Shown one piece after another: positions 34,186 through 45,474 of a DNA stretch of 64,000 nucleotides. The position numbers and the translations under genes were made by a program. The stretch lies in NCBI GenBank assembly GCA_963822445.1, contig CAWGHO010000003.1, positions 1,792,333 to 1,856,332 of the forward strand, given 5' to 3'. Source of the DNA: an uncultured Acidobacteriota bacterium (GTDB lineage: Bacteria; Acidobacteriota; Thermoanaerobaculia; Gp7-AA8). The notes under the pieces were generated by a model. It saw only the letters and a program-made list of their open reading frames with translations. It ran no database searches and was not told where the DNA came from. Numbering within the stretch: position 1 is the first letter of the stretch; the number at the start of each line of letters is the position of its first letter.

Positions 34186-37100
34186 TTACGGAGTGCAGGC
34201 CGCGGTCTCACCGACCAGGGCCGTGAACGGAGTGTTCGCGAGTCCGGAGACGGTGATGTTGTCGATCTCCCATCCCGGCGCGCCGGTGGAGTCGTCGGCG
34301 CCGACGCGGAAGCGGATCATCACGGTCTGGTTCGCGTAGGTAGTGCCGAGGTTGCGGGTCACGGTGGCGAAGTTCGGCCAGCCCACCATGCGGTTGACGA
34401 AGGCCGGGCGGCTCGCGCCGATCGGAGCGTTGGTGGCCGCGCTGGTCACGCCGTTGTACGAGCCGACGCCGATGTCGGTCCAGCTGGCGCCGCCGTTCGT
34501 GCTGAGCTCGATCACGCCGCCATCCCAGTTACCGGCCTCGAATGCGAAGCGATGCTGGAAGGTGATCACCAGCGGCCCGCTGCCGACCTGCATCGCCGGC
34601 GAGATCAGCGACTGCTGATCGGGCAGGCTCGGGTTGATGTCGTCGATCTGCCCGTTGTTGTCCGGTCCCCACCAGACGTGCTGCGTCGGCGTGATCGCAC
34701 GCCGCTGCCAGCGGTCGATGTTCGGCGCGGTAGTGGCGTTGCCGGCCACGGTCCAGCCGGGATTTCCGGCCTCGACCGACTCCGTCGCGGATGCCGCGGC
34801 CTGCTCGTCGTAATTCACGCGATGAGTCGAGACGATGTTCAGCGGACCGGGCAGACCGAGCTCCGGTGATGCGACGGACACCTTGAAATCAGCAGTCTCG
34901 AGTCCGGCGGCGCCGTTGACCGCGACGCGGATCGAACCGGTGCTGGTGCCGTTCTTCTGCACGGGCGGGAACGAGACCGTGTTGCCGTCGGGGAAGCTGA
35001 CGTTGGCGTTGGTCGAGGTGACGGTCAGCGTCACATGGTTCACGTTGTTCGGACCCTGGTTCATCAGCGTGACCGTCAGATTTCCGGTCTCGCCGTTGTC
35101 GATGACGCCGTCGGCGTCGCACGAGGCCACGTCATCCGCGAGCGTGGCGTCGACGAGCTCGAGCTGCGCCAGCTCCCAGATTCCGCGGCCGTACGTGGCG
35201 ATGCGGAGGAAGCCCCCGTCCGGCGGCATGTAGATGTCGTTGACGCGCACGGTCGGCAGGCCGTTGCCGTACGGCGACCAGTTCGCTCCCCCATCGGTCG
35301 TTCTGTAAATCCCGACGTGGGTCGCCGCGTAGATCGTGTTGCGCGACGCGTCGCGCGGGTCGAAGTAGACGCGCGTGACCGGCAGATCGGGAAGACCGTT
35401 CTGCATCGGCGTCCAGGTCGCGGTTGCCCAGCTCGCGCTCGGGCTGGCGATCGTCCCTTTGATAACGCGCACCGAGCCCGGTGCCTGCGCGACGGCGGTG
35501 ACCCAGAGATTCTGATTGTCCTGCCAGGTCAGGTTCGACACGAAGCCCTGATAGCCCGGGACCAGCGCGATCAGATTGACGTCCGTCCAGCTCGCGCCGT
35601 TGTTGGTGGTGATGTCGATGAAGCCGCCGCCGGCGCCGACGGCGATCCGGCCCAGATCGAGCGGGCTGACGCCGAGGTTGTAGGGGCTGGAGCGGAAGCG
35701 GCGCGTCGGCGGAAGGCCAGGCGAAACCGGCGGAGTGGCTGAGCCGAGCAACACAAAGCTCAAGCCGCCGTCGTTGGTCCGCCAGACGCGCGACGCGGTG
35801 AAGTGGAAGAACACCTTCCCCGTCGCATCGAGGCTCGCCTCGGGCGCAATGATCGCGGTGAAGAAGCCGGCGCCCGCGGTGTCAGTCAATCCGCCGCGAG
35901 AGACCCAGTTCTGAAAGACGTTCGGATTGCTGATCAGGCTCGTGCGGATGCCGGAGCCCTGCGAGCTGCCGAGGAGCGCGTTGGTGTTGGCCTGGCTGTG
36001 GGCGGTGCCCATGCCGTCGCCGCCGATCACCTGATCGTGGATGCCGCTGTTGTCGGTGCGCAGGCGCGTGCCGTTGTCCTGCGTGCCGCCGATGACCAGG
36101 TTCGGGAAGCCGGGGCTGCCGGCGACCGTGTAGTAGAGGTGCGAGACGAGCCCGTTGTTCTTGTCGCTGCTGAACGTCACCCCGTCATCGGTGCTGATGT
36201 TCAAGCCGCCGTCGTTGCCGAGGATGATCGTCGGCGTGCCGGTCGTCTTGAAGGCCGCGGCATGGTGATCGGCGTGCGCGTACGGAAGGGTCGGGAACTG
36301 GCTATACAGCCACCAGGTCTTGACCGACCAGCTCGTGCCGCCGTTCGTGGTCTGTGCGGTGGCGAGGTCGCCGCCGATCCAGACCGTGTTCCGCGCGGGG
36401 TCGCGCGGATCTACGAGGATCATCTGGTTGTACCAGCACTGGCCGTGGCAGATGTTCATGTTGGTCATGCCGGCGACCGGGTTGAGCGGCACTTTCGTCG
36501 AATTGACGCCGTTCGCGACCCAGGTCTGGCCGCCGTCCGCGGAGCGATAGACGTCGCGGAGCTGGGTGTCGTTCTGCACGTTCGCATAGGCGTACACGAC
36601 GCTGTCGCCGGGAAGCGCGACACCGAGCGTCGTCCGGCCGTTGGCCGAGAAAACGGTGCCGGCGTTCGAGATCGGCGCCCAGGTCGCGCCTTTGTCGGTA
36701 GAGAGATAAAGCGTCGTTGCCAATCCGCACTGCAGACCGTTGTTCACCGCGGGACACGGCTGCGCCGAGGCCAGCCATCCCGCGCTGGTGCGCACGATGT
36801 TCCAGACGGACATGCCGTTGAATGTGGCAACCGCCGAGTACGTGTCGCCTTCATTGGCCGAGCGATATAGACCGTCATTCGTCGCCACGAGGACGATGTC
36901 GCGGTTCGTGCTGGTGTCGACTTTCACGTCGCGAACGGCGATCGAGCTGCCCAGCTCGATCACGTCCGACCAGGTGTTGCCGCCGTTGGTCGACTTGACC
37001 ATCGAGCCGCCGACGAGGATCTGGTCGACGAAGTCGCCGAGGCCGAGGTAGAGCGTGTTGGGATTCTTTCCGAAGGCTACCGAGCCGCCGCCCGTCGTCG

Positions 37101-37602
37101 GCAGGTCGTCCGTCAGCGGGGTCCACTCCGTATTCGGCGAGCTCCAGTTGTTGGTGCGCCACAGGCCGCCGCCCGAGGTCAGGAAGTAGACCACTTCCGG
37201 ATTCGTCGGATGCGGCAGGACCGTGCGAGCGCGTCCGCTGTCGCGAACGTGACCGGTGAAGCTGCCGTTCTGCTCGAAGTTCGCGCCCATCGGTCCGATG
37301 TTCACCCACTTCGGTCCGGGTGCGTTCTTCTTCGCCGAGTGGTTCTTCCCTTCCTTCATCGCATTGCTGCGGAATTCGGGAGTCACGACGCCCCAGGCCG
37401 CGCGCTGCCATTCGAGCCGCGCCGTCGGGTTGTCCTGTTCGGGAAGGCTTGCTTTCGCTTCCGCGTCCGCTTCTTCGGTCAGCGCGACGTACGGAGTCTC
37501 GTCGACGGGGACGCTTTCCTGGGCGAGAGCCGGCAGCATCATCGCCAGCGAGACGACCAGGACGAGGGAAAGCCGTGGCCAGAGAAACTTCGTTTTCTTC
37601 AT
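34186..37602 (-). CDS. secreted BNR/Asp-box repeat (sialidase/sortilin-like beta-propeller) protein with C-terminal beta-sandwich domains
   Basis: Signal peptide MKKTKFLWPRLSLVLVVSLAMMLPALAQ with GGAGGA RBS; many SxDxGxTW Asp-box repeats (STDKGATW, SADGGQTW, TNGGTSW, STNGGASW, TTDGGANW). The ORF extends upstream to 37764. Confidence 0.75.
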   Translation of the reverse strand: MKKTKFLWPRLSLVLVVSLAMMLPALAQESVPVDETPYVALTEEADAEAKASLPEQDNPTARLEWQRAAWGVVTPEFRSNAMKEGKNHSAKKNAPGPKWVNIGPMGANFEQNGSFTGHVRDSGRARTVLPHPTNPEVVYFLTSGGGLWRTNNWSSPNTEWTPLTDDLPTTGGGSVAFGKNPNTLYLGLGDFVDQILVGGSMVKSTNGGNTWSDVIELGSSIAVRDVKVDTSTNRDIVLVATNDGLYRSANEGDTYSAVATFNGMSVWNIVRTSAGWLASAQPCPAVNNGLQCGLATTLYLSTDKGATWAPISNAGTVFSANGRTTLGVALPGDSVVYAYANVQNDTQLRDVYRSADGGQTWVANGVNSTKVPLNPVAGMTNMNICHGQCWYNQMILVDPRDPARNTVWIGGDLATAQTTNGGTSWSVKTWWLYSQFPTLPYAHADHHAAAFKTTGTPTIILGNDGGLNISTDDGVTFSSDKNNGLVSHLYYTVAGSPGFPNLVIGGTQDNGTRLRTDNSGIHDQVIGGDGMGTAHSQANTNALLGSSQGSGIRTSLISNPNVFQNWVSRGGLTDTAGAGFFTAIIAPEASLDATGKVFFHFTASRVWRTNDGGLSFVLLGSATPPVSPGLPPTRRFRSSPYNLGVSPLDLGRIAVGAGGGFIDITTNNGASWTDVNLIALVPGYQGFVSNLTWQDNQNLWVTAVAQAPGSVRVIKGTIASPSASWATATWTPMQNGLPDLPVTRVYFDPRDASRNTIYAATHVGIYRTTDGGANWSPYGNGLPTVRVNDIYMPPDGGFLRIATYGRGIWELAQLELVDATLADDVASCDADGVIDNGETGNLTVTLMNQGPNNVNHVTLTVTSTNANVSFPDGNTVSFPPVQKNGTSTGSIRVAVNGAAGLETADFKVSVASPELGLPGPLNIVSTHRVNYDEQAAASATESVEAGNPGWTVAGNATTAPNIDRWQRRAITPTQHVWWGPDNNGQIDDINPSLPDQQSLISPAMQVGSGPLVITFQHRFAFEAGNWDGGVIELSTNGGASWTDIGVGSYNGVTSAATNAPIGASRPAFVNRMVGWPNFATVTRNLGTTYANQTVMIRFRVGADDSTGAPGWEIDNITVSGLANTPFTALVGETAACTP

Positions 37603-37794
37603 GAATCCTCCACCAAAGTTGGTTCGAGAACGGAGTAAGAGGGACTGCGAGCCGGGGAAGAAAACCGAACGTTGGTGGCCGCGCGCATGCAGCTGCGGAG
37701 AGAGGCCGCGAGCCGAATGAGCGTCACCCTGCACACCCGAAGTAGCGATGAAGAGAGGCGCCAATAGTACCAGTGACGGAAGGAAATCGTGCTG

Positions 37795-38928
37795 TCAGAC
37801 GTACCTCAGCCAGCCGTCGGTCCGGCGCGCTTTGAGATCCGCGAACCGGCGGCACGGGAGGTAAAGCAGCGCGACAGCCACGATCCACACGAGGTAGAGC
37901 AGCCAGAGGCTCCATCGATACCCCTCGGGCGCCGGCGGAACCATGGCCGGATGATCGGCGAAGAGCCACGGCGTGACCGTTCCGAAGCGCACCAGCGAGA
38001 CGACGATCGCGGCGATGTGAATCAGCGGAATGTGCAGCAGGTAGTAGAACAGCGGCACTCGTCCGAAGATCTCGAGGACTCGCGCGATCGGACCACGTGC
38101 GCGCTCGAGCAGCGGGATCACCGCGATGGTTGGGCCGAGGGTCATCAGGAGAAAGTCGAGCGAGGCCGGGTACTTCGCTGGATTCAGGAACGACAGCCAG
38201 GCCGGTTGCCACTCGGCGTTCCATGGACTGGGATTGCCGTAACGGTTGATCGCCCGCAAAACGATAAACAGCGCCGTGGCTCCGAGTCCGATCGCGAAAC
38301 AGAGTCGGCGGCGCCGAGCCGGTTCCATGAGCATCACCGCGCCGAAGGCATACCCCGCGGCCATGACGCCGATCCACGGAATCAGCGAGTAGAGAACGAA
38401 GCCATTGCCGACCGGTCCTCCGAAATAGAGCACTTTCCAGAGCGCGCTCCAGTCGCGATCGTGCAGACCGGGGATGAGATCGGTGACGTTGTGCGCGGCG
38501 ATGATCACCAGTCCGAACATGGCGATGGCCACGACCGGCAGACGCACCAGCAGCGCGAGCACGATCATGCTCCACCCGATCACCCAGATCACACCTGCCA
38601 GCAGATGGCTGATCTGGAAGTTGAACGTCCAGAAGAAGCGGATGACCGTGAGCTCGAGGAGGATCAGCCACGCACCGCGGATCAGCAGAAACCGCGACAG
38701 CTTCCCGACGTCGCCCAGCTTGCGCGCGAGGAAGTACGCGGATGTGCCGGCGAGAAACACGAATGCGGGCGCGCAGAAATGCGTGACCCAGCGCGTGAAG
38801 AACACTCCCGGAGTCGGGCCGCCCGCGGGAACTCCCGAATAGACGCGGACATGGTCGATAGCCATGAGCACCATGACCGCGCCGCGGACGATGTCGATGG
38901 ACGCCGCGCGTGGCGAAGCCGCTTGCAT
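37795..38928 (-). CDS. DUF1624 / heparan-alpha-glucosaminide N-acetyltransferase-like polytopic membrane protein
   Basis: IDIVRGAVMVLMAIDH N-terminal motif and ~10 TM helices. Confidence 0.6.
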   Translation of the reverse strand: MQAASPRAASIDIVRGAVMVLMAIDHVRVYSGVPAGGPTPGVFFTRWVTHFCAPAFVFLAGTSAYFLARKLGDVGKLSRFLLIRGAWLILLELTVIRFFWTFNFQISHLLAGVIWVIGWSMIVLALLVRLPVVAIAMFGLVIIAAHNVTDLIPGLHDRDWSALWKVLYFGGPVGNGFVLYSLIPWIGVMAAGYAFGAVMLMEPARRRRLCFAIGLGATALFIVLRAINRYGNPSPWNAEWQPAWLSFLNPAKYPASLDFLLMTLGPTIAVIPLLERARGPIARVLEIFGRVPLFYYLLHIPLIHIAAIVVSLVRFGTVTPWLFADHPAMVPPAPEGYRWSLWLLYLVWIVAVALLYLPCRRFADLKARRTDGWLRYV

Positions 38929-39205: not shown

Positions 39206-42169
39206 ATGTCCGAGTGCGATGATCTCGATTTCACGGAACGGATCCGCTTTGATGACGTCCTGAGTCGCGAGTACGTGGAGGTCGAGCACCGGCGTAGCCG
39301 CGCGGCCGGATTGCCGGACGCGCCGCCATCAGGAACGCGTCCCGCGCGCCTGACCGGTCTGTCACTCTCCGGTGGAGGCATCCGCAGCGCGACCTTCAAT
39401 CTGGGCGTTCTTCAGGCCCTCGCCGAGAAACTGAAGCTGGGCACGTTCGACTACCTGTCCACCGTTTCCGGCGGCGGCTACACCGGCGGCTGGTGGAGCG
39501 CCTGGCTCGCGCGCGACGAGCAGAACGGCGATCCGCCGCGGCTCTTCCCGCCGCGGGAGAACATCGTCACCGAGCGCGATAACCGCCGCGCGTCGATGGA
39601 ACAGGCCGGCTACAAAGGCGGCGTCGACCGCCAGCAGGTCCAGGACAGCGCCCTCACCGCTGCCGACGATCCCATTCACCACCTTCGCCTGTTCTCGAAT
39701 TTCATCACGCCGCGCAAGGGACTGCTCAGCGCCGACACCTGGCGGGCAATCGCCATCACCCTTCGCAACATCGTCCTGACCTGGCTGATCCTCCTGCCGA
39801 TCATCCTCGCGGCGATCATCATCGGCCAGGCCGCCTTCGTCCTCGCCCTCGGCGACTCGAAAGACCTCGCAAAACGCCTTCTGTTCGCGCTGGCCGCGCC
39901 CGGTCTTCTCGCGGCGGGAAACGCGGCGGCCGTAGCGATCTGGATCCTGGCCACACGACGGCTGAAAACCTGGGGCGACAAGATCGTGGTCACCCTCGGC
40001 GGCGTCGTCTTCGTGACCCTCACCGCGATCGGACTCTCCGTGCTCGACGTTTCCGACGGCGTGATCATCGGCCTGGCCGCGCTGTTCATCCTCTGGTTCA
40101 TCTACGTCTTCGTGCGGCTGTTCTGGTGGCAGTACGTCAGCAAGTCGAAATTCACCGACGCCGATTACTGGCGCAACCGCCTGGTCGTGATCCAGACCAA
40201 GACCCTCGCGTACGCGGTCTTCGCCGCGGTCATCCTCCTCTTCGCGGGCTTCGGACATGTGCTCTTCAACTTTCTGCTAGACAAGACAACGCACGCCGCG
40301 ACGCAGGCTGGCGGCTTCGGTGCGCTGGCGCTGTCGCTCCTCGGCGCCGCGTACACGGCGTACAAGGCCTCGCCCACCGGCGGCGCGGATCAGAAGTCGA
40401 AAGCGAAGCCGTCGCTCGTGCACCGCGTCGCATTTGCCGTCGCGCCATTCCTGCTGATCCTCACGCTCGGCATCGTGCTGTCGTGGGTCGGCAATGAGTT
40501 GTACGAGATCATCCACAGGTCACCGCATCGTCTCCATCTCGTCAGCCGCGGCGCGATCGTGGCCGCGTTCCTCTTTCTCATCTTCGGCCTCTACGAATTC
40601 CGCCCGCGGCAGAAAGGCCCGACGCTGATCGCATTGAGCCTGGTCTGGATCGCGATCGTCGTGGGAGCGCTGCGCTTCAAGCTCGAGCCGTCGCGCCTCC
40701 TGTCGCTCAGCGTGATCATCCTGGCCATCCTCGCGGTGGTGCTGATCGGCCGCTCGATTCTCCGGCGCCGCCGCTGGATCGCTTTTTACGCCGCGGTCCT
40801 CGGACTCGTGGCCTGGTGGTTCTCCACGCTCGACGCCAGCGCGGTCACGCTGTGGGGCCTCGGGCTTTCGCAGATCGTCGTCGCGGGCACGCTGGCCACA
40901 CTGGCGCTGCTCGTCCTCGAACTGGCCGCGGGCCGCGGCGCGAATACGCGCTGCATCGCCTTGACGATCATCGCCTGCAGCATCTTCGTGCTCGTCGGCG
41001 CGTCCGCGTCCGTTCATGGACTGATCGGCCAGCGCGCCCTGACGATCATCAGCCTGATCGCGATCATCCTCGGCTGGGTCCTGGCCCTGGGATGGCTCGC
41101 CGATCCGAACTCGCTGACCATCCACGCCTTCTACAAAGCACGTCTCGTCCGCGCGTACATGGGCGCGTCGAACCCGCAACGCGCTCAGGCGACCGAGGCG
41201 GACATCACGGATGCGGTGCCTGGCGATGATGTGTTGCTCACACAGCTCCGCAACACCGACCGCGGCGCGCCCTACCACCTCGTCAACACGATGCTGAACC
41301 TCGTCGGCGGCGGCGATCTGGCCACGCAGGCGCGTGCGTCCGAGCTGTTCCTGATGTCGAAGCATTTCTGCGGATCGATGCGCACCGGATACCGACGGAC
41401 CTCCGAATACGCGTGCGGCGCGATCTCGCTCGGCACCGCGGTGGCGGTCTCCGGCGCGGCCGCGAGCCCGACGATGGGCGCGCAGACGCCGTCAGCCGCG
41501 CTGTCCGCATTGATGACGCTGTTCAACGTCCGCACGGGGTACTGGGCTCCGACGCCGAGTCTCAGCTACTGGCGCAGCGGTTCCACGCGACTCTGGCCGG
41601 TGTACACACTGCAGGAGCTCGTGTCGCAAACGACCGATCTACTTCCCTACTGCTACCTCACCGACGGCGGCCATTACGAGAACACCGGCGCGTATTCGCT
41701 CGTGCAACGCGGCTGCAATCTCATCGTCATCGGTGAATGCGGCGCGGATCCCGACACGACGCTCGACGACCTCGGGAATCTCATCCGCAAAGTGCGCATC
41801 GATTTCGGCGCGGAGATCACCTTCGACGATCCCGACATCAAGAAGCTGCGCACGCGTCCTCCCGGCGAGCGAATCATCGTCGGCAAGATCCGCTACGGCG
41901 ACAAGCACAGCGAAGCCCTCGGCCTTCCCGACTCGGAACGCGTCGGCACGATCATCATCATGAAGCCGAACCTCTCCGGCAGCGAGCCGGTCGACGTGCA
42001 GCAGTACGGCTTCCTCAACACCGACTTCCCGCAGCAGCAGACCTTCGACCTCTTTTACGACGAGGCCCAGTTCGAGAGCTATCGGCGGCTCGGCCAGCTG
42101 TCCGGTGAGCTTGCCGCGGCGCGGATGACGATGTGGGAAGCAGAGGTGAACCGGCCGCCGGCGACGTGA
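39206..42169 (+). CDS. patatin-like phospholipase whose catalytic domain is interrupted by a ~550-aa multi-pass membrane domain
   Basis: N-terminus LSLSGGGIRSATFNLGVLQAL (GGGxR oxyanion) and FDYLSTVSGGGYTGG (nucleophile-elbow position); >12 hydrophobic helices in the middle; C-terminus LLPYCYLTDGGHYENTGAYSLV (catalytic Asp DGG motif). Confidence 0.65.
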   Translation: MSECDDLDFTERIRFDDVLSREYVEVEHRRSRAAGLPDAPPSGTRPARLTGLSLSGGGIRSATFNLGVLQALAEKLKLGTFDYLSTVSGGGYTGGWWSAWLARDEQNGDPPRLFPPRENIVTERDNRRASMEQAGYKGGVDRQQVQDSALTAADDPIHHLRLFSNFITPRKGLLSADTWRAIAITLRNIVLTWLILLPIILAAIIIGQAAFVLALGDSKDLAKRLLFALAAPGLLAAGNAAAVAIWILATRRLKTWGDKIVVTLGGVVFVTLTAIGLSVLDVSDGVIIGLAALFILWFIYVFVRLFWWQYVSKSKFTDADYWRNRLVVIQTKTLAYAVFAAVILLFAGFGHVLFNFLLDKTTHAATQAGGFGALALSLLGAAYTAYKASPTGGADQKSKAKPSLVHRVAFAVAPFLLILTLGIVLSWVGNELYEIIHRSPHRLHLVSRGAIVAAFLFLIFGLYEFRPRQKGPTLIALSLVWIAIVVGALRFKLEPSRLLSLSVIILAILAVVLIGRSILRRRRWIAFYAAVLGLVAWWFSTLDASAVTLWGLGLSQIVVAGTLATLALLVLELAAGRGANTRCIALTIIACSIFVLVGASASVHGLIGQRALTIISLIAIILGWVLALGWLADPNSLTIHAFYKARLVRAYMGASNPQRAQATEADITDAVPGDDVLLTQLRNTDRGAPYHLVNTMLNLVGGGDLATQARASELFLMSKHFCGSMRTGYRRTSEYACGAISLGTAVAVSGAAASPTMGAQTPSAALSALMTLFNVRTGYWAPTPSLSYWRSGSTRLWPVYTLQELVSQTTDLLPYCYLTDGGHYENTGAYSLVQRGCNLIVIGECGADPDTTLDDLGNLIRKVRIDFGAEITFDDPDIKKLRTRPPGERIIVGKIRYGDKHSEALGLPDSERVGTIIIMKPNLSGSEPVDVQQYGFLNTDFPQQQTFDLFYDEAQFESYRRLGQLSGELAAARMTMWEAEVNRPPAT

Positions 42170-42342: not shown

Positions 42343-43122
42343 CTAGCGCTTGAGCAACCCCACCCACCGCTTCCACGCTTCCTCGTACGCCTTGCGATTC
42401 GCTTCGATCGCGTCGGGCATTTCGCCGAGGCGCATGAAGGCGTGGCCGGCGCCCTCGTAGATCACCGGCTCGAAGGTCTTGCCGGCGGCTTTCATCAGCT
42501 CTTCCGTCTTCGGAATGCTCGCGTTCACGCGGGCGTCGTTGCCGCCGTAGAAGCCGTACACCGGCGCTTCGATCCCGGCGACACCCGACGCTTCCTGCGG
42601 ACCGCCGCCGTAAAACGGATACGCCGCGGTGATGCCGTCGATATTGTTCGCCACGTCCCAGGTCCGCGACCCGCCCCAGCAGAAACCGGCGACCGACACT
42701 TTCCCGTTCGCGGCGGGGATCTTCCGCGCGTAGTCGACGACGGCGCGCAGGTCTTCGATCACCTTCGCGCGATCGAGCTTGCCGATCGCCTCGCGGGCCG
42801 CGTCTTCGGTCGGAAAGTCTTTCGTGTTCCCGCCGTTCGGCGCGGTGCCGGAAAGCAGGTCCGGCGCAACGGCGATGTATCCCTCTTCGGCAAGACGATC
42901 CGCAACGGTGCGGACCCAATCGGTGAGCCCGCGGTTCTCGTGAATGACCACGATGGCGGGCGCGCGATTCGACAACTGCGGATAGACGACATACGTGCGC
43001 ACCTTGCCGACGTCGACCCACTCATCGTGACGGGGCGTGGCTTCGAGTCGCGAGGTCGTGGGCGCGGTGGTCGTGGTCTGGCAGGCAACGAGGAACAGGA
43101 GACCGATCAGCATCTTTCGCAT
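42343..43122 (-). CDS. dienelactone hydrolase family lipoprotein
   Basis: MRKMLIGLLFLVACQ lipobox; DLH-family alpha/beta fold (GFCWGG nucleophile region, HAF); start ATG overlaps the upstream stop as TGATG. Confidence 0.75.
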   Translation of the reverse strand: MRKMLIGLLFLVACQTTTTAPTTSRLEATPRHDEWVDVGKVRTYVVYPQLSNRAPAIVVIHENRGLTDWVRTVADRLAEEGYIAVAPDLLSGTAPNGGNTKDFPTEDAAREAIGKLDRAKVIEDLRAVVDYARKIPAANGKVSVAGFCWGGSRTWDVANNIDGITAAYPFYGGGPQEASGVAGIEAPVYGFYGGNDARVNASIPKTEELMKAAGKTFEPVIYEGAGHAFMRLGEMPDAIEANRKAYEEAWKRWVGLLKR

Positions 43123-43494
43123 CAGGCACTCTCCAGCAGTTTCACCAGTTTTTTCGGGGCGATGGCGCGGTAGCTTTCGTCGATCCACGACTTCAGCAGA
43201 TCGAGCGGCACGTCGGCGACCTTGGTGAAGCTCGCCGTCACCCAGCCGCTCTTGCCGAGACCGTACCCGGTCGGCTCCGCGAACGGCAGATCGACGGCCA
43301 TGTCCCGCGAAGCAGGGCAGCTTCACCGACAGGCTGAGCTCCTTCGCGTTCTTGTCGCCGCCGAGGAAGACGAACGATTTGCCCTTCACCTTCATCGCCC
43401 GGTGGCCCCACGGATGATCCTCGGTGACCTCGGGGAAAGTCAGGGCGTAATCGCGTAACTGCAGCTCCAGTGATTCGAGAGTCTTCTTTGGCAT
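43122..43494 (-). pseudogene. MmcQ/YjbR-family gene with an internal frameshift near 43290
   Basis: N-terminal 65 aa in one frame (MPKKTLESLELQLRDYALTFPEVTEDHPWGHRAMKVKGKSFVFLGG...SVKLP) and the conserved C-terminal half (PFAEPTGYGLGKSGWVTASFTKVADVPLDLLKSWIDESYRAIAPKKLVKLLESA) in another; the six-frame ORF joins it artificially to the DLH gene via Arg-rich junk. Confidence 0.5.
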
Positions 43495-44559: not shown

Positions 44560-45474
44560 ATGGCACGTTTATTCTTCGCTCGCGGGGCGCGCGGCGCGAT
44601 CATTCAGCGCATTCAGGAGAAGCTCACCGCGTCGGGTTGCGACACGAAAGGCCACGACGGGATCTACGGCGGCGATACCGTCGCGGCTGTGAAGGCGTTT
44701 CAGAAGCTGTATGACCTGCCGGAAACCGGATCCGTCGACGAGGACACCTGGAAGACGCTGATGGAAGAGCCGGTGCCGCCGGTCCTCGATCGCTGTCTCG
44801 GTCTCACCTCGACCTTCGAAGGCCACGGCTTCACGCTCGCCCAGGGCAACTTCGACGGCGCGGGGATCACCTGGGGAATCATCGGCTTCACCCTCAAGCA
44901 CGGCGAGCTCACCAAGATATTGAAATCGGCGTTTGCAGAGGATGAAGCGCTGGTGCGCGAGTGCTTCGGCGACAAGACCGACGAGATCCTGCACATGCTC
45001 GACGAGCCATGGGAGAAGCAGAAATCGTGGGCCGACGCAATCAGCCTCGGCTCATCGAAAGCGACGCTCGCCGAGCCTTACAAAAGCGGCTTCGCGAAGT
45101 TCGGTGAGACGGCGCTCGCGCAGCGCCTGCAGCTCGAGCGGGTGCGCGACGCTTACTACACGCCGGCCCTGCAGACCGCGCAGAAGTTCGGGATCAAGAC
45201 CGAAGTCGGAACCGCGCTCTGCTTCGACATCCACGTGCAGAACGGCGGCGTGAAAGCGGCTGCCGAAACCGCGGTCAAATCCAAGCTCCAGCCGGGCATG
45301 GCCGAGGCCGAGATCCGGCTGCTGATCGCGAATGCCGTCGCCGACAACGCGTTGCCGGAATGGCGCGAAGACGTTCGCAACCGCAAGGTGACCATTGCCA
45401 AAGGCAGCGGCAGCGTGCATGGCCTGAAGGCCGAGCTGAAAAACTGGGGACTGGACGAATTCAGCGTGAGCTAG
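44560..45474 (+). CDS. peptidoglycan-binding domain + glycoside hydrolase family 46 (chitosanase)-like domain protein
   Basis: PG_binding_1-like GHDGIYGGDTVAAVKAFQKLYDLPETGSVDEDTWKTL; TSTFEGHGFTLAQGNFDGAGITWGIIGFT resembles the GH46 catalytic region; no signal peptide. Confidence 0.5.
   Translation: MARLFFARGARGAIIQRIQEKLTASGCDTKGHDGIYGGDTVAAVKAFQKLYDLPETGSVDEDTWKTLMEEPVPPVLDRCLGLTSTFEGHGFTLAQGNFDGAGITWGIIGFTLKHGELTKILKSAFAEDEALVRECFGDKTDEILHMLDEPWEKQKSWADAISLGSSKATLAEPYKSGFAKFGETALAQRLQLERVRDAYYTPALQTAQKFGIKTEVGTALCFDIHVQNGGVKAAAETAVKSKLQPGMAEAEIRLLIANAVADNALPEWREDVRNRKVTIAKGSGSVHGLKAELKNWGLDEFSVS

Follow-up and report, generated by a model that had tools for sequence, protein, structure and literature searches.

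A bacterial lipase family with a patatin/cPLA2-type catalytic domain predicted to be split by a bundle of transmembrane helices

A putative lipase gene with an internal membrane domain

The window analyzed here, i.e., the whole stretch of DNA under study, comprises 64,000 nucleotides of contig CAWGHO010000003.1 from an uncultured Acidobacteriota bacterium, and our subject is a gene on its plus strand (39206..42169) predicted to encode a membrane-split lipase of the cPLA2/patatin type. The gene consists of one uninterrupted open reading frame (ORF) of 987 codons, with the stop codon included in the coordinates, and the 987 aa protein starts at a residue 1 that aligns with the N-termini of its homologs. 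Three parts of the protein can be told apart: an N-terminal catalytic segment (residues 1-175; 39206..39730, on the plus strand like every other feature of the protein given below), a polytopic membrane insert with 14 predicted transmembrane (TM) helices (residues 176-635; 39731..41110), and a C-terminal catalytic segment (residues 636-987; 41111..42166). A sequence-only reading that preceded this work had taken the outer segments for the Ser and Asp halves of one patatin-type fold, separated by a membrane domain of ~550 aa. Conservation, profile comparisons, and structure models all point to such a split fold, and the polytopic domain itself is confirmed at a shorter length of about 460 aa.

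Conserved motifs of the two catalytic segments

Conservation was assessed in an alignment of 69 family members, with homologs 40-77% identical to the query. The putative oxyanion-hole and phosphate-binding motif S55-G-G-G-I-R60 (39368..39385), in which S55, G56, G57, G58, and R60 are invariant, stands directly after a strand (E50-54) in the AlphaFold2 (AF2) model and aligns to GGGAR of cPLA2-delta and to GGGAK of VipD. The likely nucleophile elbow, S85-T-V-S88-G-G-G91 (39458..39478), is invariant as well; its putative nucleophile, Ser88 (codon 39467-39469), is modeled at a strand-to-helix turn between E83-86 and H89-102 and aligns to the Ser of G-I-S-G-S in cPLA2-delta and of G-A-S-A-G in VipD. 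Across loci from many phyla, S[TSC]VSGG is kept wherever the gene is readable (78/78). The third motif, D820-G-G-H823 (41663..41674), with the putative catalytic Asp820, lies in the C-terminal segment, is again invariant, and aligns to the Asp motifs of relatives, i.e., to LVDAAYFINT of cPLA2-delta (a sub-threshold, co-linear match) and to IGDGGLFDN of an insert-free patatin described below (hhalign E 0.004). The sequence-only reading had correctly placed the oxyanion and nucleophile motifs within residues ~50-100 and the DGG motif near residue ~800 (here 55-60, 85-91, and 820-823).

Ser88 and Asp820 are thus 732 aa apart. The earlier comparison with canonical patatins, whose motifs were said to lie within ~180 aa of one another, was right that the separation is real but overstated the share of the insert, since the Ser-Asp spacing without the insert is still 269 aa, versus 286 aa in cPLA2-delta by the chain numbering of the profile match. 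The membrane insert therefore explains only part of the unusual separation.

Between the insert and the Asp motif lies a block III-like motif, A745-VAVSGAAASP-755 (41438..41470), in which S749, G750, A751, and A752 are invariant. The sequence-only reading had noticed here a second weak motif set, GGGD...VSGAA. Both strings do exist (residues 701-704 and 748-752), but we rejected a second active site, as the third G of GGGD is variable and VSGAA aligns, weakly but co-linearly, with patatin block III, whose canonical pattern is A-S-x-x-x-P. The GGGD string itself belongs to a conserved strand-loop with the consensus NLVGGxDLAT.

The passages between the catalytic segments and the membrane insert are conserved too. 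The junction D155-PIHHLRLFSNFITPRKGLLSADTWRA-181 (39668..39748) leads straight into TM1 and holds 13 residues that are invariant in the 69 sequences (D155, P156, H158, H159, R161, F163, T168, P169, G172, S175, D177, W179, and A181). Its consensus before TM1 reads DPIHHLRLF.N..TPRKG..S.DTWRA, and that of the counterpart after TM14 reads GW..DPN....H.FYK.RL.RAY.GASN.

The C-terminal segment as a whole has a mean column conservation of 0.76. Within it, residues 752-793 together with 808-821 (41459..41668) form a highly conserved, low-confidence stretch, with column conservation of 0.84 and 0.91, respectively, versus 0.64 overall, and with a predicted local distance difference test score (pLDDT) below 50 in both of the structure models described in the next section. 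In cPLA2, ExoU, and VipD, activation commonly involves the ordering of lid- or switch-like elements. The conserved, unmodeled stretch running into Asp820 is a candidate for such a lid or switch, and its conservation and poor modeling are what would be expected of one.

Predicted fold of the catalytic domain

In the N-terminal segment, AF2 predicts a strand, the oxyanion loop, a second strand, the nucleophile elbow, and helices, and the two strands (E50-54 and E83-86) are placed with a pLDDT of about 90. Taken alone, this fragment matches the Pfam Patatin profile (PF01734) with 32.1 bits against a gathering (GA) threshold of 27.7, over profile positions 1-49 of 191, and the query spliced to remove the insert matches over the same positions with 31.6 bits. 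The full-length query returned no Patatin match at E<=1, and homologs score 26-30 bits, around the 27.7 cutoff, over profile positions 1 to ~55 of 191 only; the long hydrophobic insert appears to suppress the match in the full-length protein. The related profile PF01735 gave no match at E<=1 for the full-length protein or its fragments, and a Pfam scan of the protein detected no C2 domain, cNMP-binding domain, POTRA, or Omp85.

When the family profile was compared with Protein Data Bank (PDB) sequences, the best matches were cPLA2-delta (E 0.018) and VipD (E 0.022), both over the block from GGGxR to the Ser. The insert-deleted profile added a second, co-linear segment below threshold, pairing LTDGGHfdNT with the LVDAAYFINT stretch of cPLA2-delta, which we take to hold the catalytic Asp of that enzyme. 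Compared by hhalign with the insert-free patatin, the insert-deleted profile aligned in three co-linear segments: the GGG-Ser block (probability 96.5%, E 9e-10), block III, where SLGTAVAVSGAAASP was matched weakly to SLGVATSASFPP (E 0.44; AVSGAAASP, the conserved residues 747-755, opposite ATSASFPP), and the DGG block mentioned above.

The full-length AF2 model has a mean pLDDT of 81.2 and a predicted template modeling score (pTM) of 0.75 and contains the 14 TM helices. For the insert-deleted construct, residues 173-635 were removed and residues 40-172 joined to 636-975, while the other rows of the alignment remained full-length homologs. Its model is one globular unit (pLDDT 79.1, pTM 0.84), in which the C-terminal segment supplies most of the beta-sheet as well as the putative catalytic Asp. 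A Foldseek search with this model retrieved human cPLA2-alpha (1cjy_A) from end to end over 543 columns (E 9e-7, probability 1.00, query TM-score 0.47). The match to cPLA2-delta has a TM-score of 0.49, and the cPLA2 alpha and delta matches together span E 9e-7 to 4e-6, query TM-scores of 0.45-0.49, and identities of 12-14%. Next came PlpD (target TM-score 0.48-0.53), patatin-17, VipD, ExoU, CapE, CapV, and iPLA2-beta, with probabilities of 0.66-0.96 for patatin-17, VipD, and ExoU and of 0.75-0.92 for CapV and CapE. The 40 best matches are without exception members of the patatin/cPLA2 superfamily; other folds come up only at E>1. The full-length model retrieved the same top match, diluted by the helix bundle.

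These models support the co-folding of the N- and C-terminal segments into one domain, as the sequence-only reading had proposed. By the models, the catalytic domain resembles cPLA2 more than a classic patatin, and the closest shape match being cPLA2 fits the insert-free Ser-Asp spacing. The protein thus has the predicted fold and the motifs of the patatin/cPLA2 superfamily, with a candidate Ser-Asp dyad and a putative lipase activity.

The membrane insert and its topology

Hydropathy analysis yielded 13-14 hydrophobic segments between residues 181 and 635, and the AF2 model read with DSSP yielded 14 long helices (H176-631), in agreement with the more than 12 hydrophobic helices previously counted between the motifs. 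No N-terminal signal peptide and no TM segment was found in the lipase protein before residue 176. The number of helices is even, which co-folding of the two catalytic segments requires. Summed over the loops, the mean number of Lys and Arg residues in the 69 sequences is 16.0 for the short loops on the side of the catalytic domain versus 9.0 on the other side, and 4.2 of those 9.0 fall within one long acidic variable loop. By the positive-inside rule, this charge bias suggests that the lipase domain faces the cytoplasm, i.e., the inner leaflet of the cytoplasmic membrane.

Conservation within the insert is 0.56 as a whole and peaks at TM1 (0.76) and at the TM14 junction (0.74). Several of its cytoplasmic loops are conserved in the alignment (YTAxKASPTGG, YEFRP, and ELxxGxGxNxR), which suggests that they contact the catalytic domain, and conserved polar residues occur within the bundle (R187, N188, E464, E572, N580, and R582). 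Among the 78 readable loci, the distance from GGG to DGG ranges from 474 to 1168 aa, equivalent to ~6-15 hydrophobic helices; a Desulfobacteraceae member (L029) has a bundle of ~6. The insert is therefore a defining feature of the family, and its size is plastic.

A weak internal duplication relates helices H2-H4 to H7-H9 (hhalign self-match E 2e-4, probability 47%), and it could account for the expansion of helix number in other lineages. The motif L.[KH]R..FA.AP.LL is present twice in the insert. Another repeat motif spotted by eye, YE[MF]xW..R, was discarded, as no clean regular expression for it could be written across homologs.

Searched with phmmer against 1.84 billion representative sequences, the insert on its own gave no stand-alone version of the membrane module; the matches were family members or apparent fragments at contig edges. 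Several candidate identities for the bundle were likewise set aside. The Pfam family MASE10 scored 16-17 bits against a cutoff of 27, Piezo2 (E 0.3) and SID1 (E 2 or worse) were sub-threshold hydrophobic matches in the profile comparison with PDB, and the transporter folds MFS, MurJ, GltPh, and ABC had Foldseek probabilities below 0.2.

Family distribution and genomic context

Of 8000 candidates scored in the homolog search, 5975 proteins matched with E<=1e-3. The full-length matches in the 40-77% identity range come mostly from metagenome-assembled genomes of Thermoanaerobaculia and Pyrinomonadaceae, and several homologs are named "patatin-like phospholipase family protein" by NCBI. With thousands of full-length homologs sharing the same layout, chance is excluded as its origin. 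A pattern scan with one genome per species found the family in at least 586 species genomes, so that the insertion, whose phylogenetic spread the sequence-only reading had wondered about, is present across many phyla with its ~6-15 helices. Carriers belong to the Acidobacteriota, Beta- and Gammaproteobacteria, Bacteroidota, Nitrospirota, Verrucomicrobiota, Desulfobacterota, Gemmatimonadota, Rokubacteria, and Planctomycetota. Cultured ones include Luteimonas sp. R10, Spirosoma fluviale, Massilia spp., Caballeronia choica, Chromobacterium alkanivorans, Hymenobacter citatus, and a Rhodanobacter sp., as well as Azospirillum ramasamyi, whose copy (WP_111069335.1, 1020 aa) lies among metabolic genes.

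In the window, the guanine-plus-cytosine (GC) content of the lipase gene is about that of its surroundings. The upstream neighbor (37795-38928) is divergent and encodes an HGSNAT_cat/DUF1624 protein (Pfam E 1.3e-15), and the downstream gene, convergent with the lipase gene, encodes a dienelactone hydrolase (DLH) family protein (Pfam E 1.2e-44). The lipase gene is therefore transcriptionally alone; a promoter and terminator scan at the gene was uninformative. Both neighbors had been identified correctly by the sequence-only reading, but they do not amount to a conserved partnership: they recur only in close relatives, as ordinary synteny together with YjbR, asparaginase, and RadA genes, and the DLH/YjbR/asparaginase order is kept in a 70%-identical relative. 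All-against-all clustering of the ORFs flanking 84 loci yielded no conserved gene partner, the commonest neighbor being a PAS histidine kinase at 9/84 loci. The lipase protein had no match in PADLOC, PHROGs, or NCBIfam. With the C-terminal domain as the query, none of 50,697 phage records contained a copy, and 39/72,556 plasmids matched; among the plasmid matches listed, nearly all are replicons of 0.18-2.8 Mb, mostly from rhizobia and relatives of Burkholderia.

In seven Nitrospira loci and one Desulfobacterales locus (L041:1854-3293, also L042, L047, L054, L057, L061, L063, and L064), an insert-free patatin of ~480 aa is encoded immediately upstream of the split lipase, with stop and start codons abutting. 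The L041 copy matches PF01734 with 59 bits over profile positions 1-190 of 191, carries a lipoprotein-type signal, and has the S-x-V-S-G-G motif. The arrangement suggests a lineage-specific pair of one probably exported and one cytoplasm-facing lipase.

Seven Pyrinomonadaceae-type relatives (P0104, P0106, P0110, P0111, P0115, P0116, and P0118) carry an extra conserved N-terminal domain of ~230 aa with the motifs ..VVVL.S.., ..VLFGYE.G..M.GL.APARRVG.F.., and W.LFDAA..WA. The domain matches no Pfam family and may serve in regulation or sensing. Next to another relative, P0059, genes for a canonical 345-aa patatin, a Palm_thioest/PGAP1-like lipase, and a peptidase M15 form a local group of hydrolases acting on lipids and the cell wall (L002:9250-12632).

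Further genes in the vicinity were annotated in passing. The mechanically called 383-aa ORF at 42343-43494 (minus strand) is in fact two genes, per the gene calls on an identical contig, with Pfam matches in separate halves: the DLH hydrolase (~42343-43122) and a YjbR-family protein (~43122-43493). Two genes upstream of the lipase gene, 34186-37764 (minus strand) encodes a 1192-aa Sortilin/Vps10-BNR repeat protein. A Sortilin/Vps10-like protein (L003:2484-5834) is also encoded directly upstream of the 49%-identical homolog P0080, which is probably synteny and not a functional link. On the other side, 44560-45474 (plus strand) encodes a PG_binding_1 peptidoglycan-binding domain fused to a GH46 chitosanase-like domain and is followed by a gene for a 162-aa hydrophobic protein without a Pfam match and then by RadA.

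Proposed function and alternatives

We favor, with a probability of roughly 60%, the reading that the protein is an integral inner-membrane acyl hydrolase of the phospholipase A or lysophospholipase type, belonging to the patatin/cPLA2 superfamily and likely having a housekeeping role in lipid metabolism. In such an enzyme, core strands one and two, the oxyanion/phosphate-binding loop with GGGxR, and the nucleophile Ser88 would come from residues 1-175, and the remainder of the sheet, the catalytic Asp820, and block III from residues 636-987; folded together, the two segments would form a single cPLA2-like domain at the cytoplasmic face. The 14-helix bundle would leave and re-enter this domain via the short invariant junctions, so that the active-site region would be clamped against the inner leaflet. 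A membrane glycerolipid may serve as the substrate, moving sideways out of the bilayer to the Ser-Asp dyad. The bundle may also take over the role of the soluble cap and lid of cPLA2, i.e., anchoring and control of substrate access, and the conserved stretch at Asp820 may be mobile and complete the active site only when the membrane or the substrate is in the proper state.

As to the physiological role, genomic context makes turnover or remodeling of membrane lipids in the inner leaflet most likely, rather than a toxin or a mobile defense module: the local GC content, the housekeeping synteny, the lack of PADLOC, PHROGs, and NCBIfam matches, the absence from the phage records, the low number of plasmid matches, the metabolic neighbors in Azospirillum, and the occurrence in at least 586 species genomes favor a chromosomal, vertically inherited housekeeping function.

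Several observations weigh against this reading. The nucleophile pentapeptide is T-V-S-G-G, with a T in place of the first G of the usual G-x-S-x-G, as the sequence-only reading had already pointed out. The loop bearing Asp820 has a pLDDT below 50 in the full-length and the insert-deleted models alike, so the Ser-Asp dyad is a putative one. The sequence-only reading had suggested searching both segments for the Patatin profile, and this succeeded for the N-terminal fragment only; the C-terminal 352-aa fragment matched no Pfam family, and its assignment thus rests on structure together with weak co-linear profile matches. A search of open-access full-text literature found no enzymatic or genetic study of any family member. 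A hydrolase activity as opposed to a transacylase one, the substrate, and the physiological role are inferences. Finally, a phospholipase acting from the cytoplasmic side on the membrane of its own cell may kill that cell, a property equally fitting for a regulated suicide effector.

Such an effector, self-contained and combining sensor and lipase, is possible but clearly less probable. The bundle would sense a perturbation of the membrane, such as phage damage, depolarization, or envelope stress, and switch on the lipase, which would destroy the inner membrane in the manner of CapV, the effector of antiphage signaling systems based on cyclic oligonucleotides (CBASS) that does so after activation by cyclic nucleotides. 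Patatin-fold lipases do serve as abortive-infection effectors, CapV and CapE are among our fold matches, the enzyme would face the cell's own inner leaflet by the positive-inside analysis, and the conserved unmodeled stretch near Asp820 is compatible with an off-state. In addition, insert length and the presence of the extra N-terminal domain vary by lineage, as in diversifying conflict systems. Some relatives lie near a WYL regulator and a faint nSTAND-like NTPase match, one lies near another patatin together with a PGAP1-like lipase and a peptidase M15, and Nitrospira loci contain a HerA/DUF87 ATPase. Nevertheless, these defense-like neighbors are anecdotal, no PADLOC model matched, and the best neighbor cluster covers 9/84 loci; the GC content, the synteny of close relatives, and the phage and plasmid counts given above speak against a defense module as well.

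A related idea concerns the bundle alone: instead of a simple anchor, it might sense a physical property of the inner membrane, be it lipid packing, tension, curvature, potential, or harm done by phages or toxins, and signal through the invariant junctions to the stretch near Asp820, where the dyad would be assembled only on demand. We regard this as speculative and rather improbable. Gating of the lipase by its membrane domain, raised as a possibility by the sequence-only reading, is a conjecture.

No better placed is the idea of a lipid-remodeling transacylase, or of a hydrolase coupled to lipid translocation, in which the Ser-Asp domain would pass acyl chains on instead of releasing them, or would act on lysolipids, and the bundle would flip or deliver the lipid from one leaflet to the other, in a division of labor between a membrane and a cytoplasmic catalytic module like that of MprF; we consider it doubtful. 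A 14-helix bundle with conserved loops and polar residues exceeds the needs of a simple anchor, and enzymes of the cPLA2/PNPLA kind have lysophospholipase and transacylase activities. The exported insert-free patatin directly upstream in Nitrospira suggests a two-compartment lipid pathway. Against this, the bundle has no confident match to a transporter or flippase, and its length varies two-fold within the family, which would be unusual for a defined transport pathway.

A membrane protein without catalytic activity, in which a patatin-like scaffold is retained for binding or structural purposes, is very improbable: the non-canonical T-V-S-G-G, the low-confidence Asp loop, and the marginal Pfam matches would agree with it, but Ser88, Asp820, Arg60, and the GGG loop show no variation across phyla, and S-x-V-S-G-G also occurs in the full-length, Pfam-validated patatin (59 bits) next to the split lipase. 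An artefact of annotation or assembly, in which a sequencing error joined two or three genes, for part of a patatin at the N-terminus, a membrane protein, and an unrelated protein at the C-terminus, has only the unusual layout in its favor and is refuted by the same uninterrupted ORF, which recurs in independent assemblies by the thousand, complete genomes of cultured strains among them, as well as by N- and C-terminal parts that are incomplete folds alone and co-fold in the model.

Patatin/cPLA2 lipases are known as soluble enzymes that depend on C2 domains, host cofactors, cyclic nucleotides, or beta-barrels to reach a membrane, and this recruitment is their main control point. With a catalytic domain split by a TM bundle, the acyl hydrolase we propose would always be on its substrate, and its control would have to lie elsewhere. 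The split catalytic domain is a new architecture of a known kind of enzyme, widespread, uncharacterized, and under-annotated, given that a standard Pfam scan of the full-length query does not detect the domain and that the C-terminal half of the domain is never recognized. The sequence-only reading had not recognized the architecture among characterized effectors, and we too found no description of a patatin/cPLA2 domain interrupted by TM helices in the open-access literature. Carriers include cultivable Luteimonas, Massilia, Spirosoma, Hymenobacter, Chromobacterium, and Azospirillum, as well as rhizobia, in which it can be tested how the activity of a phospholipase that never leaves the membrane is restrained. 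The family thus offers a tractable entry to lipid turnover in the bacterial inner membrane or, alternatively, to a new self-contained membrane-damage effector. If the bundle did sense the state of the membrane, the protein would be a gated phospholipase in one polypeptide, and hundreds of bacterial species would carry an enzyme regulated by a principle new to the superfamily.

Comparison with known systems

Among known membrane-associated patatins, the type Vd autotransporters PlpD and FplA consist of a patatin passenger, a POTRA domain, and a 16-strand Omp85 barrel, whereas the membrane part of the split lipase is all-helical and internal to the catalytic domain. With no POTRA or Omp85 match, the split lipase is not a type Vd autotransporter. 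Neuropathy target esterase (NTE, PNPLA6) is a membrane-anchored patatin lipid hydrolase with a catalytic domain facing the cytoplasm, as is predicted for the split lipase. NTE has its TM segment at the N-terminus and an uninterrupted patatin domain; in contrast, the split lipase has its TM bundle inside the catalytic domain and no detected cNMP-binding domains.

The CBASS effectors CapV and CapE share the patatin fold with the split lipase. According to PMC12480259, these lipases attack the producer's own inner membrane and are switched on by cyclic nucleotides that a neighboring CD-NTase makes. Both effectors are soluble proteins of ~300-350 aa, by the lengths of the matched targets, whereas the split lipase would be permanently embedded in the membrane. 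With no CD-NTase partner at its loci and no PADLOC match, it is not a CapV-type CBASS effector.

Classic patatins (Pat17, 1OXW; PlpD, 5FQU/5FYA; ExoU; VipD) have the superfamily fold in common with the split lipase, which has patatin blocks I, II, and IV along with a faintly discernible block III. In these proteins, the domain is contiguous with Ser and Asp ~140-180 aa apart, and membrane association is brought about by other parts, i.e., by the Omp85 beta-barrel in PlpD and by a C-terminal helical bundle in ExoU. We know of no classic patatin with TM helices inside its catalytic domain. The insert-free patatin of the L041 locus shares S-x-V-S-G-G with the split lipase, but its 479-aa domain is contiguous and the similarity of the C-terminal halves is at the level of motifs only.

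The best structural match of the insert-deleted domain is cPLA2 (alpha, 1CJY; delta, 5IXC/5IZ5), a soluble eukaryotic enzyme that is recruited to membranes by its C2 domain and has a soluble cap with a lid. The split lipase is not a member of the cPLA2/PLA2_B family proper, as it has no PF01735 match, no C2 domain, and an identity of 12-14%. The two nevertheless have much in common: both have GGGxR and a Ser-Gly-type nucleophile motif, both have a long Ser-Asp spacing, and both place an extra module between the catalytic residues, over the active site. In cPLA2, this module is the soluble cap with its lid, whereas in the split lipase, it is a predicted bundle of 14 TM helices.

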